Virus record (IMG/VR): IMGVR_UViG_2529293044_000006
Location: 1 to 24,435 of that record
Source of the DNA: a virus
Taxonomy: Duplodnaviria > Heunggongvirae > Uroviricota > Caudoviricetes
Strand: one strand, 5' to 3'
Length of the DNA stretch: 24,435 nt
Shown: positions 6,001 to 12,000 of the stretch, one piece after another
Layout: every line of letters starts with the position of its first letter
Numbering within the stretch: the stretch's first letter is position 1
Made by a program: the position numbers

Positions 6001-9000
6001 CTTTCAGCTCATCAAGGCGATCGCGCACTGTCTTGCGGTTGGCATCAATTAGCTTTGGAATTTCCTTCAGTTCAGCAACAAGGTCTTTGCCAAGACCATC
6101 GAGATATGTTTTCGTCTGCGCAACTTTATACGCCAGAGAAGCGATCTCCTTTCTGCCCTTTGCCGTTGTGATATCAGGCACAAAGGACATAACTTCACGT
6201 TCAACCTTTTGAAGGATTTCTTCAATCTGGTCGGCAGACTGAAATACAGTCATTGCATTTGCTTTTTCAATAACAACTAAATCTGTTACTTCACTCATAT
6301 ATCCTCCATCAAAAAAATTGCCCTCACATTGGAGGGCAAAGAAGATTTCCAATAATCAGAACAAGTCGGCTCCTGTTTAGTTACGAGCGACATTGCTCCG
6401 TGTATTCACTCGTTGGAATGAATACACAGTGCTTATTCGTACTAATAAAACACCCAATTTTCTGTTTCTTGGTTGTGTCCAAAGTTATATTCAATATCTG
6501 GTGTTGATGTATCAATATTCTTCATCCCATCAACAAGAGTTGATACAACAGCCAAATCTTGTTTGATTCTCATCAAATGGTATTTCTTTCGGCGCAATAA
6601 ACTTTCAATGGCAAGTTTCTTCGTCGGGAATGCAAAAGATCTTTCTGCATTTTTTGCTACTTTCTTAATTGCATATCTATTTCTCCTTTGTTTCCATTCC
6701 TGTAACCACTGATTTGGTGCTGGTTTAAAATTAACAATCCAATGCGCAGGAACCAACCATGCATAATGCTCTGTCTGATGAAAAGCTATATATTGAAGTG
6801 CGAATATTTTGATCCCATCTTCTTCAACTGTCGCCTGGAATCTCCAGAAAACAGGCATTCCATCATGTTCAGTTTCTGATTCAGGAAAAGGTACGCTCCA
6901 TGATTTTGTCATATCTCACCTCAAATAAGTGGTTTGCTGCCTAATTTCATTTTCTGGCGACCAACACAAGTCATCTTGCTGTCAGTTGTTTGGATTTCCG
7001 GTAGCCTGCCGCGTAAATGGCTACGTTTGGAAGACATACACCAGTTTCTGGTTGCTTATGTCCAAACTCATTCGCGTACACAATGGCCGCTCGCTCCAGA
7101 TTGCGTCTGTATTCTTTCTGTTGCCAGATCACGTCCTGTGCTATGAACTTAATTGGCTTAGCGTCTTCTATGCGCTCAGGCGTTTCGTGAGTACCTTTAG
7201 CCTGAATCTGCGCTCTGCTTAGAGTAGGGCGGTGTAATACTTCTGAACTTATTGCTTCTTCGCGGGCCAGTACGCCGTTAGCTAATGCCTTTGCCTTTAA
7301 ACGCTCACGACGACGAGAACGTGAATTGCCTTTGAACTGAGTTCTGCGTGTCATATAGACCTCCTGATGAACTTTGGTGGTGTGGTCGGTGGGAGACCCA
7401 TTTCGACCTGTTTCGGCCTACTTCAATTCGGCAATAGTCCCGCAGGCCTCGCCGCTTTACGTGCGACATATTCCCGTCCATGAACCCTTCACCACACCCC
7501 AAAGTTCACTTTGGTTATTGCGCTTTGTCAGCGCCGTAGATTCTTGCTTGAATCGTTGTATATTCACCGCCCTGGTGAGTAGTGCGTCCTGCTGATGTGT
7601 TTAGTATCACCGCCAGTGGTATTTGCGTCAACACCGCCAGAGATAATTTATCACCGCAGATGGTTATCTGTATGTTTTTTATATAGATTTATTTTTTTGC
7701 AGGGGTGTGTGGCTTGGGAGGTGATCGAGAGATCTGAATTGCGATGTTTAGTGAGTTGTATCTATTAATTTTCAAATAAATACAATTGGTTATGTGTTAT
7801 TGGGTGAAGGGGATCGTGAGGTAAAGAAAACCCGGCGCTGAGGCCGGGTTGTGTGTTACTTAAGAACGAGTCCGTTTAAGGCATCAAGGATTTTGGAAAC
7901 ATAACTTCCAAAAATGTAGGCGCAAAATGCGAACACGAAACTGACAACGACCGCAGATGCCTTGATGGTGATTTTTGCTGAGCTAATGCTTGTCTCAATA
8001 CCTGACAGACGAGAATCTACAGATTTTATATCTGACTTTACTTCAGCGAGATCGCGCTTGATGTATTCAACATCAGACTCTAGCTTTGCAACTCTAGCCT
8101 CAAGCATGTTACCTCCGCCGTTTCCTCCACCATGCCGTGAGTATGCATCATCAGTGGAATAGTGTCCAATTGGGCGAGATATGTTTTGATTTGGACGAAG
8201 CTGAGCAACCTTGTTATCTAAACTCATCGCGAACTGATCCTGTTATCTTCACGTCAAAAAACGAACTTTTTACATCAATTACTTCGCCTTTATCAGGATT
8301 AACCAGTGATGCTCTAACTTCGAATATCCCAGGCTTGATAATTTTCACCCTTGGGAAGTTAATTCTCATAGAAGTTGATACGATGGTTTCTCCATCGTTG
8401 GCTTCTGCTACCGTAAAAAACTTATGGTTGGAGTACAGTTTTGTGTCAATTGGTATCGGTATTTCTTGAGCATTGAAAACCTCAATGCCTATGGAATATT
8501 TTTTTGTAGCCTTAAGGCCGATAAAAAAAGCGCCAAATGATAGATCCACTTCATGGGAGTCTTTATCCATTTCATAGATAAGAACTGGAGTTACTGGGTT
8601 GCCTTCATCCATCGCAATCGGAATGATATAAGAAATACGTTCTTTAATCATTTACGTGTTATCCAAACGTCTCTTCAGGCCACTGGCTGGCGATAACTTT
8701 CCCCATAACGGAACAACTCTCATTGCATGGGATCATTGGGTACTGTGGGTTTAGTGGTTGTAAAAACACCTGACCGCTATCCCTGATCAGTTTCTTGAAG
8801 GTAAACTCATCACCCCCAAGTCTGGCTATGCAGAAATCACCTGGCTCAACAGCCTGCTCAGGGTCAACCAGAATTAACATCCCGTCAGGAAAACTAGGTT
8901 TGGATCCTGTTGGCGCGGTCATGGAATTACCTTCAACCTCAAGCCAGAATGCAGAATCACTGGCTTTTTTGGTTGTGCTTACCCATCTCTCCGCATCACC

Positions 9001-12000
9001 TTTGGTAAAGGTTCTAAGCTCAGGCGAGAACATCCCGGCCTGAACATGAGAAAAAACAGGGTACTCATACTCACTTCTAAGTGACGGCTGCATACTAACC
9101 GCTTCATACATCTCGTAGATTTCTCTGGCGATTGAAGGGCTAAATTCTTCAACGCTAACGTTGAGAATTTTTGCAAGCAATGCGGCGTTATAAGCATTTA
9201 ATGCATTGATGCCATTAAATAAAGCACCAACGCCTGACTGTCCCATCCCCATCTTGTCTGCGACAGATTCCTGGGATAAGCCAAGTTCATTTTCTTTTTT
9301 CATAAATAGCTTTAAGGCGACGTGCGTCCTCAAGCTGCTCTTGTGTTAATGGTTTCTTTTTTGCGCTCATACGTTAAATCTATCACCGCAAGGGATAAAT
9401 ATCTAACACCGTGCGTGTTGACTATTTTACCTCTGGCGGTGATAATGGTTGCATGTACTAAGGAGGTTGTATGGAACAACGCATAACCCTGAAAGATTAT
9501 GCAATGCGCTTTGGGCAAACCAAGACAGCTAAAGATCTCGGCGTATATCAAAGCGCGATCAACAAGGCCATTCATGCAGGCCGAAAGATTTTTTTAACTA
9601 TAAACGCTGATGGAAGCGTTTATGCGGAAGAGGTAAAGCCCTTCCCAAGTAACAAAAAAACAACTGCATAAGTAACACCGCTATTTTCACAATGGACATT
9701 CGTCCTACGTCGCTGACAAAGCGAGTCCCAATATATCTGACCAACTAAGGCCATATGCGTTTCCACGCATACCTTTCAACTAACTATTCACTATTGGAAA
9801 TATTAAGAAATGACACAAGCAAGTTACAGCAAGCCAACACAGCGAGAAATTGATCGCGCAGAAACTGATTTACTCATCAACCTGTCAACGCTTACCCAGC
9901 GCGGTCTGGCAAAGATGATTGGCTGTCATGAATCGAAGATAAGCAGAACGGACTGGAGATTTATTGCTTCGGTCTTGTGTGCTTTCGGAATGGCATCAGA
10001 CATAAGTCCGATTAGCAGGGCTTTTAAGTATGCGCTTGATGGACTCACCAATAAAAAACGCCCGGTGTGCAAGACCGAGCGTTCTGATCAAATACAAATG
10101 GAATTTTAATAACATCCAACGAGGTAATTATATGCGAAAAACGCAGGAAAATAAACGCGTTAATCACCGAAAAGATGTGCTACGTGACCAGTTTTATCAG
10201 GGGGTTAATCCAGCAATAGCTGTGCCACTGAGAGAAATACTTAACAGGTACAAAACTTCGGAGAAGTCAAAATGAGCATGAATCTTATGGCTAAGGCCAT
10301 GAATATAAAGGTTGGCAACCCACTGAGAAAACTGGTTCTGATTAAACTTGCCGATAACGCCAATGATAATGGCGAATGCTGGCCTTCATATCAACATGTC
10401 GCTGACCAGTGTGAGGTGAGCAGATCGACAGTAAAAAGTCACATTAGGGCGCTGGAAGAGATGGGGCTTTTGAAAAGGGAATTCAGAAGAAAAGGAGAGC
10501 TTAACCAGTCAAACGTTTTTTATCTGACGCTGGATAATGCACAACAAATACAACCAGAATCAGGTGGGGCAGGAGCTGCCCGGGGTGGGGCAGGAGCTGC
10601 CCGGGGTGGGGCAGGAGCTGACCTAGGGGGTGGGGCAGGAGCTGCCCCCAGAACCTATCACTCTTTTGAACCAGTCAATGAACCTAAAAACATTATGTTC
10701 GAACATGTCCGAACAGAGAGTGAAAAAACTCCTGACCGTCACGAAGAAACCGACAAGGCATTCGAGGAAATATTCTGGTGTGCAGGCATGCGGAAAGCCG
10801 GGAAGAAAAACGCAGCTTCGGCATTCAGAACACAGTTCAGGGAATGGCGTAAAACTACCAGGGGTACGGCAAGCGAGTTTGCCACGATGCTGGCAGAAGA
10901 CATCGCATGCAGGAATGGTAAGCAGTTCGGATTCGACAGGTTGTTACCATCGAGCTACCTGAACGGTCAGCGCTGGAACGACGAAAAGCCAGAAACCATT
11001 CAACCACAATCCAAACCATCATCCGCAATCACCGTATCGAAAACTGGCTACGTGTTTTTCGACAGGTGAACCATGAAATCAAAAATCAAATCGCTACTGG
11101 TCGCTGGTTATAACCACGGCTGGTTAAGTATTTCGTTTGTCGATTTCTGGTTTAAAAATCTCAATCTGAGGGAATCATGACGCCAAGTGAACTTAGCGAC
11201 CTGCTTTGGGCGCAGGTTGACAGGGTGGCTCCGCACCTGTTGCCAAACGGCAAGAAAGAGGGGCATGAGTGGGTTGCCGGTAACGTCAACGGTGACAAGG
11301 GAAACAGCCTTAAGGTCAACCTTAGCGGCAAGAAAAAATGGGCTGATTTCGCTGAGGGAGACGGCGGTGACATGCTTGATTTGTGGATGGCATGTCGAGG
11401 AATTAACCTGCATCAGGCTATGCAGGAAGCGAAAGCATTTCTCGGTATCAAGGATGACGATCACCATTTCGATGCCAAACGTGAGAAGAAATTCTCCAGA
11501 CCTGATCGCAAGAAAATCGCCCGCTACGTTACCAGAACAGAATCCCATCTTGAGTACCTGCAATCGCGTGGCATATCGCCAGAAGTCGTAAAGCGCTACG
11601 AGGTTGTCAGCGGCAAGGTGTGGAATGGAGAACGAGAACTTGATGCACTGGTGCTTCCGTACAAACGCGATGGTGAGTTGTTGCAGGTCAAGCGAATCAG
11701 CACTGAGCGACCGGACGGGAAGAAAGTCATTATGGCAGAAGGTGATTGCGAACCTTGTCTGTTCGGATGGCAGGCTCTGGACGCTGGCGTGAGGGCGGTT
11801 GTACTTTGCGAAGGCGAAATTGATTGTATGAGCTATGCGCAATACGGCATCTCGGCGTTATCCGTGCCGTTTGGTGGCGGGAAAGGCGCTAAGCAGCAGT
11901 GGATTGAGTTTGAGTATCACAACCTCGACAGGTTTGAGGAAATATTCATCTCGATGGACGTTGATGATGTTGGTCGTGAAGCCGCAAGGGAAATCGCAAG

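Follow-up and report, generated by a model that had tools for sequence, protein, structure and literature searches.

The window analysed here, the entire 24,435-bp draft contig AIFD01000007.1 (GCA_000249235.2), carries a prophage in which a lambda-type cI gene lies next to the right operators and the divergent cro gene. The features of the immunity region, and an insertion in the leftward early operon, are as follows.

2707-5923, plus strand: IS100 (IS21 family) with a nested IS3 (4334-5591, in istB), within a 322-aa leftward early operon gene
7605-7665, no strand assigned: OL1, OL2 and OL3, exact matches, intact
8659-9333, minus strand: 3′ part of cI in the +1 frame, with TTG 9333 and ATG 9303-9301 in frame and the stop codon TAA at 8661-8659
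9287-9370, minus strand: 5′ piece of cI, from ATG 9370 through 25 wild-type codons, R and K to TGA at 9289-9287 (27 aa)
9290-9300, minus strand: frameshift tract, with A6 at 9300-9295, G at 9294 and A4 at 9293-9290, as placed by alignments with E2348/69 and AR-0428
9381-9444, no strand assigned: OR3, OR2 and OR1 with PRM/PR, between cI and cro, matching exactly the three lambda OR 17-mers
9471-9671, plus strand: cro, intact, 66 aa, 100% identical to E2348/69 Cro (Pfam Cro, 5.9e-35)

The minus-strand tract at 9300-9290 reads A6-G-A4 where relatives have A7-G-A5; each run is one A short, thus 2 nt are lost in net. A single contiguous 2-nt deletion is impossible here, as the missing A's flank the G on both sides. 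The near-identical cI copy of E2348/69 reads A7-G-A5 in the alignment, in agreement with the wild-type run lengths given in an earlier sequence-only reading of this DNA, and the lambda cI sequence does likewise. We observed in a tblastn search that residues 1-27 of E2348/69 CI map to 9287-9370 in frame -3, starting at ATG 9370, a leaderless-type start adjoining OR3, while residues 22-237 map to the 3′ part in frame -1; this part carries the remaining HTH_3 domain and the complete Peptidase_S24 domain. A single uninterrupted cI reading frame of ~237 codons is thus absent from the sequence as deposited and appears only when one A is added to each run. Judged by the sequence, the frame break is not a chance pattern; the difference is a specific 2 nt within a 1.1-kb match that is otherwise 99.7% identical to E2348/69.

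The sequence-only reading had claimed that cI is not translatable as a full-length repressor in the sequence as written, with the remainder of CI, including the S24 domain, in another frame; we confirmed the break where it had been placed, and the remainder in the +1 frame ending at TAA 8661-8659. The stop in the frame of ATG 9370 is present as well, but the peptide quoted for this frame was two residues short, as R and K follow YEK. ATG 9303 had been named as the only internal start; it is in frame, though an in-frame TTG at 9333, further upstream, went unmentioned. The 214-aa product from ATG 9303 (Pfam HTH_3, 1.1e-10; Peptidase_S24, 4.6e-29) does lack the N-terminal arm, as had been said, but the loss was understated: residues 1-22 are missing, which in the lambda repressor structure make up the arm and essentially all of helix 1.

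When the two A's are put back, a 237-aa CI is obtained that equals E2348/69 CI except for V223M, and that departs from lambda CI at 3 of 237 residues. Restored CI shows Pfam HTH_3 with 2.6e-11 and Peptidase_S24 with 5.5e-29 over the full profile. The N-terminal helix-turn-helix is therefore present, although in the deposited sequence the first 25 residues stand in a separate frame from the rest. The S24 self-cleavage domain is present too, and the translation contains VQAGMF, GNSM and FKKL, which in lambda CI hold the Ala-Gly cleavage site and the Ser/Lys dyad.

The surroundings of the break are those of a cognate immunity system, with a tripartite OR and OL and a divergent cro. All six operators (OR1-3 and OL1-3) have 0 mismatches to the lambda operator sequences. 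The earlier claim that Cro, operators and promoters look intact stands for Cro and for the operators; the stretch holding the promoters was judged only by comparison of 8600-9700 with E2348/69, in which the two A losses and one substitution are the only differences. Intact cII and N were also found, and N, cro, cII, the replication genes, Q, endolysin and Rz are all full length. Apart from the frameshifted genes described below, the other phage genes are likewise full length, with 91-100% amino acid identity (mostly 97-100%) to one or the other E2348/69 prophage. Across cI, OR and cro, DNA of the imm-lambda systems (lambda, HK97, mEp234 and the E2348/69 prophage at 2.62 Mb) is 97.8-99.7% identical to the window, which differs from them in that its cI reading frame, as deposited, is broken where A7 and A5 are each one A short. 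Downstream of cI, lambda has rexA/rexB, whereas here, as in E2348/69, two unrelated small genes (phrog_5893 and phrog_6136) are found; neither could be assigned by PADLOC, NCBIfam or Pfam. The window gave no hits in Rfam and tRNA scans.

The window is a mosaic of sequences known from two prophages of E2348/69. Positions 6442-10139 match the prophage at 2.62 Mb and positions 9785-24154 match the one at 725 kb, itself with annotated pseudogenes, the junction being at the 3′ end of cII; the largest share of the window found at one place in any complete genome is 67%. The IS100::IS3 insertion is genuine damage to the prophage.

We then considered how widely the cI variant is shared. A megablast search with 91 nt found 633 homologous places across 618 complete E. 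coli genomes, and A6-G-A4 stands at none of them. The exact pattern had no matches in genome_contigs, in viral_contigs (two pattern lengths) or in metagenome_contigs, while the wild-type tract had at least 120 exact matches in viral_contigs. In a collection of 153 billion gene positions, which includes read-level Logan assemblies, only one contig, AIFD01000007.1, is listed with the 214-aa protein that starts at ATG 9303, and the 224-aa TTG-start version of the truncated CI is not on record. The variant is thus private to a single record and absent from independent homologous assemblies.

The single frame had one exception among the 633 places, where another deletion, of 1 nt, has led to a 'frameshifted' annotation. 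In the cI gene of E. coli O157 AR-0428 (CP044145.1), annotated 'frameshifted', A7 is also shortened to A6, but the tract reads A6-G-A5, with one base lost; the same A6-G-A5 with one lost base is seen in IMG/VR contigs 2529293140_000005 and 2534681934_000021, whereas in the window both runs are shortened. These three other public assemblies with a shortened A7 show the same class of error, homopolymer frameshifts nearby: in AR-0428 a neighbouring gene is also frameshifted, and a comparison of L126 with L069 over 5 kb gave 0 substitutions and three run contractions.

Besides those in cI, at least nine further private single-base indels were found on AIFD01000007.1. Some put three more conserved genes out of frame (holin, terminase small subunit and, with three indels, SASA esterase) and others fall between genes; all are on the plus strand.

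18072-18078, plus strand: intergenic T-run, T7 against T8 in relatives, the sole difference in 1081 nt
19477-21326, plus strand: SASA-family esterase gene, with an A inserted at 21034, A3 shortened to A2 at 21082-21083 and G5 shortened to G4 at 21093-21096
21438, 21453 and 21470, plus strand: private single-base intergenic insertions, A|CAA, T|ATTT and G|AGGGG
21622-21827, plus strand: class II holin gene, frameshifted at codon 3, with A5 at 21626-21630 against A6 in relatives
24288-24435, plus strand: 5′ end of the terminase small subunit gene, out of frame from codon 6, with A5 at 24303-24307 against A6 in relatives

The esterase reading frame ends at 21045, giving 522 aa instead of 616, and the best of 5845 homologous places still differs by all three indels. 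For the holin indel no closer match was seen in 8814 homologous places (best 97.8%). In the terminase region the A-run is the sole difference across 286 nt, and the variant is absent from 229 homologous places. The G6 run at 17118 was rejected as an error and left outside the tally, being a natural polymorphism common to relatives.

The same type of error is thus found elsewhere in the record, conserved genes included, and its form is uniform. All eight private deletions shorten a run, and each of the four insertions in unique sequence places a base X before Y followed by a run of X. In the 3170 nt compared with all complete genomes, a comparison to which the T4 run at 2105-2108 does not belong, 11 single-base indels proved private to the window, against at most 5 private substitutions. 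Private indels therefore outnumber private substitutions; under the assumption that indels make up 20% of natural private changes, the probability of at least 10 indels in 15 is ~1e-4. Run-only contractions, insertions of the X|Y+X-run form, private variants, several conserved genes affected on one contig and an excess of indels over substitutions all resemble the homopolymer-length and carry-forward errors that flow-based chemistries of the 454/Ion Torrent type leave in draft assemblies. For the insertions, flowgram logic applies: in T-A-C-G order the flow of X falls between the flows of its neighbours. The likeness is not complete, as ~1 private indel per 2 kb exceeds what good coverage normally leaves in an assembly and the errors are clustered, which points to locally poor coverage or to prophage repeats left unresolved. 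No indel error was seen in 3.2 kb of the IS100 and IS3 copies, which is uninformative with only ~1.6 expected.

These comparisons show that the cI variant is private and that errors of a single technical type recur in conserved genes of the contig; from this we infer the sequencing chemistry, and with it the wild-type state of the DNA in the cell. With a probability of roughly 0.87, judging from these sequence comparisons, the cI frameshift would be a base-calling or assembly artefact, and the real prophage most likely has A7-G-A5 and a normal 237-aa CI. We favour the artefact because the variant is restricted to one draft contig (0 of 633 places), because four conserved genes on that contig are frameshifted by private single-base indels, and because these indels outnumber substitutions and share one technical form. 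We also favour it since cI shows no other decay while the other phage genes are full length, and since A7 is shortened in three other assemblies with the same error class. Furthermore, by established lambda genetics a prophage that lacks functional cI but retains N, cro, cII, the replication genes and Q would be derepressed and difficult to maintain. The consensus from flow-based (pyrosequencing-type) reads would under-call homopolymer runs and sometimes set a base one flow early, and two such under-calls may have hit the neighbouring A7 and A5 of cI. The real repressor would then be E2348/69 CI with V223M, of the lambda-immunity type; it would be expressed from PRM and PRE, act on the intact OR and OL and be cleavable via its S24 domain. 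Of the two branches left by the sequence-only reading, the one in which the sequence is wrong and immunity intact is therefore much the likelier, given 0 of 633 places and the frameshifts in holin, terminase and esterase; the other, a prophage unable to hold lambda immunity, is unsupported, as its evidence is a single-contig variant amid at least nine like indels.

An explanation that we consider unlikely is that both A losses are real and that cI is a pseudogene of a decaying cryptic prophage, whose lysogen could persist owing to the crippled state of the prophage or to CI provided in trans by a second lambda-immunity prophage of the same genome. The element is not pristine, having a leftward early operon gene disrupted by the nested IS100::IS3, and this damage makes relaxed selection conceivable, which speaks against an artefact; the E2348/69 prophage at 725 kb, too, has annotated pseudogenes, and an immunity region 99.7% identical to that of a separate E2348/69 prophage indicates that homoimmune partners exist in the lineage. 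Real -1 frameshifts in lambda cI also occur in homopolymer runs, which are genuine hotspots for them (PMC7198004), so that location alone has no discriminating power. Still, two independent slippages 1 nt apart would be required in a gene with only one substitution, along with parallel private frameshifts in three more conserved genes at an indel to substitution ratio of ~2:1; the X|Y+X-run form of the insertions would be left unexplained, no other genome or read assembly examined has the variant, and the N, cro, cII, replication, Q, endolysin and Rz genes have all stayed full length. One would expect the lesion of a genuine pseudogene to be common to related strains or to be accompanied by other neutral decay; here the lesion is private and, apart from the two A losses, comparison with E2348/69 gave a single substitution across 1.1 kb, and cI has zero nonsense codons. 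Allowing that A6-G-A4 is real, one could also speculate that it is a slippage-prone cI switch, with the repressor lost or trickling from +1 frameshifting, and with a homoimmune sister prophage or the IS-damaged operon keeping the lysogen alive; we regard this as very unlikely.

Whether the shortened tract might be not only real but functional is a related matter. Low-level CI could come from +1 ribosomal frameshifting at A-AAA-AGA, or the A-tract could act as a reversible immunity switch. The zero frame does read GAA AAA AGA AAA TGA, and a +1 slip would yield a 236-aa CI in which KKK becomes KE; such a slip of tRNA-Lys on AAA-A before the rare AGA is in line with known +1 frameshifting at hungry codons. 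Also, three other records have independent shortenings of A7. Programmed recoding is defined by its conservation, however, and the shifted arrangement occurs at 0 of 633 homologous places; the other A6 records display general homopolymer error, and the same contig has equivalent frameshifts in genes where recoding is implausible. We find this extremely unlikely, and a programmed frameshift or contingency locus was rejected as the main reading, the arrangement not being conserved among the 633 places. There is next to no chance, finally, that the source of the errors was not read chemistry but an assembly in which two paralogous prophages were collapsed or joined as a chimera. The immunity region does resemble one E2348/69 prophage and the backbone another, no complete genome has >67% of the window at one place, and indels cluster at 21034-21630, beside a ~140-bp length difference. 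Yet the junction at the 3′ end of cII is a normal mosaic boundary, and mixing two wild-type cI copies, both A7-G-A5, would not yield A6-G-A4; a chimera would in any case be an artefact, with the same practical conclusion.

The break in cI is thus very probably a base-calling error of a draft assembly, which would make the finding an ordinary one with no real biological feature behind it. If the frameshift were true, this would be a lambda-immunity prophage without its own repressor, and the question would be how its lysogen survives; with a real tract, lambda immunity that is maintained in trans or recoded would have been met in nature. As it stands, the frameshift in the deposited cI should not be taken as loss of immunity. 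AIFD01000007.1 is to be treated as bearing ~1 homopolymer-type indel per 2 kb, and an annotation would wrongly list as pseudogenes at least four of its genes, those for CI, holin, terminase small subunit and esterase. Public assemblies repeatedly miscall the length of the A7-G-A5 tract in lambda-type cI, a point to bear in mind in automatic scoring of the 'intactness' of prophages.

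The cI gene of the window (minus strand) starts at ATG 9370, adjoining OR3, and meets a stop, TGA 9289-9287, after 27 codons; the rest of CI (∼212 codons, ending at TAA 8661-8659) lies in the +1 frame and holds the remainder of HTH_3 and the full Peptidase_S24 domain (Pfam). Candidate starts in that frame are TTG 9333 and ATG 9303. Translation agrees with the sequence-only reading that the frame is broken after the PRM-proximal ATG and continues in another frame. Three details need minor correction: the N-terminal ORF does stop early, after 27 codons and not 25; ATG 9303 is in frame, with TTG 9333 overlooked further upstream; and a product from ATG 9303 would lose more than the arm, namely residues 1-22, presumably the arm together with helix 1 of the lambda repressor structure.

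The closest relative of the cI region is the prophage at 2.62 Mb in E. coli E2348/69 (99.7% identity over 1.1 kb), in which the 237-aa CI is intact. In the alignment, that relative reads tatGAAAAAAAGAAAAATGaac and the window tatGAAAAAAGAAAATGaac, one A being lost from each of two neighbouring runs (A7-G-A5 to A6-G-A4, 9300-9290). Because the missing A's flank the G, two separate events are needed. With both restored, the 237-aa product equals E2348/69 CI except for V223M, and differs from lambda CI by T3A, K71N and V223M. V223M (codon 223, 8702-8704), located close to the C-terminal end of the S24 domain, is the only private amino-acid change with respect to both proteins.

A complete lambda-type immunity region is present in the window.
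6971-7354: N-like antiterminator
7605-7665: operators OL1-3, no mismatch to the lambda 17-mers
9381-9444: operators OR3-OR1, likewise no mismatch to the lambda 17-mers
9471-9671: cro, 66 aa, Pfam Cro 5.9e-35
9810-10109: CII homologue

That Cro and the operators are intact, as had been proposed, is borne out by the six operators and by 100% identity of Cro to that of E2348/69. Also full length are N, cII, Q, endolysin, Rz and the replication genes, which encode a 265-aa HTH_36 protein and a 626-aa Toprim protein. As an ordinary member, the locus takes its place in the lambda-immunity group next to lambda, HK97, mEp234 and E2348/69, departing from it solely in the lack of an uninterrupted ORF, which most likely has a technical cause. 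In the position held by rexA/rexB in lambda, downstream of cI, two small genes are located (7856-8651, minus strand), encoding proteins of 145 aa (phrog_5893) and 123 aa (phrog_6136), each 100% identical to its counterpart in the E2348/69 pair adjoining cI; neither has a PADLOC or NCBIfam match. The 123-aa protein contains a glycine-rich region and a coiled coil (weak match, XhlA-like), together with a hydrophobic segment at the C-terminus. The two genes may form a moron of the immunity region or an exclusion cassette.

The prophage is a mosaic: of the two E2348/69 prophages, the one at 2.62 Mb matches the immunity part (6442-10139), and the one at 725 kb matches the replication-to-lysis part (9785-24154). 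The switch point falls at the end of cII (3′); no single place in any complete E. coli genome accounts for more than 67% of the window. At 2707-5923 we observed IS100 (IS21 family; istA intact, 340 aa), whose istB harbours a nested, complete IS3 of 1258 bp (4334-5591); together they split a hypothetical gene (322 aa) in the leftward early operon into halves at 6298-5921 and 2706-2113. Relative to E2348/69, the HTH_36 protein gene has an extra 21-bp in-frame unit (10563-10583) of a GGAGAAR-type Gly/Ala repeat. Between the nin region and Q, an lpxR (lipid A deacylase) moron lies in the opposite orientation (15884-16843, minus strand); it is 100% identical to E2348/69 lpxR. Around 21345-21357, the window lacks ∼140 bp that E2348/69 and every other top match contain; a terminator-like segment after the esterase gene (AAAAAAGCCAGC...GCTGGCT), duplicated in relatives, has one copy here.

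In an exact-product look-up, over a collection that includes read-level assemblies, the 214-aa truncated CI product was recorded solely on AIFD01000007.1, a 24,435-bp contig of draft assembly GCA_000249235.2 that makes up the whole window. Across 618 complete E. coli genomes with 633 homologous places, no place was identical to the window in the 91 nt surrounding the tract, and all but one of these places have the wild-type tract length. The exception, O157 strain AR-0428 (CP044145.1), has A6-G-A5 annotated as ‘frameshifted’, next to a replication gene that is also frameshifted. No exact copy of the A6-G-A4 tract occurred among the collected genome, viral or metagenome contigs; the wild-type tract had at least 120 matches in viral contigs. 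Two IMG/VR contigs carry the single-loss form A6-G-A5, and one of them differs from its sister contig over 5 kb by three homopolymer contractions and no substitution. The A7 run of cI, shortened to A6 in these three other public records, is thus a recurrent length-miscall site in error-prone assemblies.

The annotated genes of both related E2348/69 prophages were translated and searched against the window. Nearly all genes were full length, with 91-100% (mostly 97-100%) amino-acid identity to either prophage; besides cI, frame changes were seen in three genes, and further single-base changes between genes.
21622-21827: class II holin, ATG 21622; ATG GAA AAA ATC to ATG GAA AAA TC, A6 to A5 at codon 3
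19477-21326: SASA-family carbohydrate esterase, 522 versus 616 aa; A inserted at 21034, A3 to A2 at 21082, G5 to G4 at 21093
24288-24435: terminase small subunit, ATG 24288; AAG AAA AAA CTG to AAG AAA AAC TG, A6 to A5 (24303-24307) at codon 6
21438, 21453 and 21470: three intergenic single-base insertions
18072-18078: intergenic T8 to T7, the sole difference in 1081 nt

These indels were absent from all 229 (terminase), 5845 (esterase) and 8814 (holin) homologous places in every complete E. coli genome. The three in the esterase gene are confined to 60 nt, and the one in the terminase gene, within which the contig ends, is all that separates the window from its best relatives over 286 nt. In the holin gene, translation from a GTG in frame at 21642 might nevertheless yield a 61-aa product without the first seven residues. 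The T4 run at 2105-2108 is a further candidate indel; G6 at 17118 was dropped as a natural polymorphism common to relatives.

All eight private deletions are run contractions (those listed: A7, A5, T8, A3, G5, A6 and A6, with cI counted as two). In all four insertions in unique sequence, ACT[A]CA, TGT[A]CAA, GTC[T]ATTT and ATC[G]AGGGG, a base X was added ahead of a Y that precedes one or more further X, and the flow of X falls between those of its neighbours in T-A-C-G order. Such insertions would be expected from out-of-phase (carry-forward) signal in flow-based sequencing. Over the 3170 nt for which the comparison covered the whole collection, private indels numbered 11 and private substitutions at most five; natural divergence has the opposite ratio. 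If indels make up 20% of natural private changes, the probability of at least 10 indels among 15 is ∼1e-4.

We consider it highly probable (∼0.87) that the draft assembly has a consensus error at the cI frameshift and that the real prophage has A7-G-A5 and a functional switch. The biology fits: by established lambda genetics, a prophage lacking repressor but retaining N, cro, cII, the replication genes, Q, endolysin and Rz intact would be expected to be derepressed and difficult to keep. A real cI pseudogene is improbable, if still worth consideration: the prophage is truly damaged by IS100 with its nested IS3, CI could be supplied in trans by a homoimmune sister prophage, cf. E2348/69, and real -1 frameshifts in lambda cI likewise occur in homopolymer runs (PMC7198004). 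It would, however, require two events within one 13-nt tract of a gene with one substitution only, as well as parallel private frameshifts in three further conserved genes, and would leave the form of the insertions without account.

That the tract works as a recoding or contingency switch is very unlikely given its failure of conservation across the 633 homologous places. Least probable of all is an assembly collapse of two paralogous prophages, in which case the break would likewise be an artefact; two wild-type copies would not yield A6-G-A4. The cI break is best regarded as not a real feature. With the frameshift taken as a consensus error, the prophage most probably carries A7-G-A5 and a working lambda-immunity switch. 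Homopolymer-type indels occur in this contig at about one per 2 kb; at least four of its apparent pseudogenes should be given a biological reading only after a check of the reads or of a PCR product.
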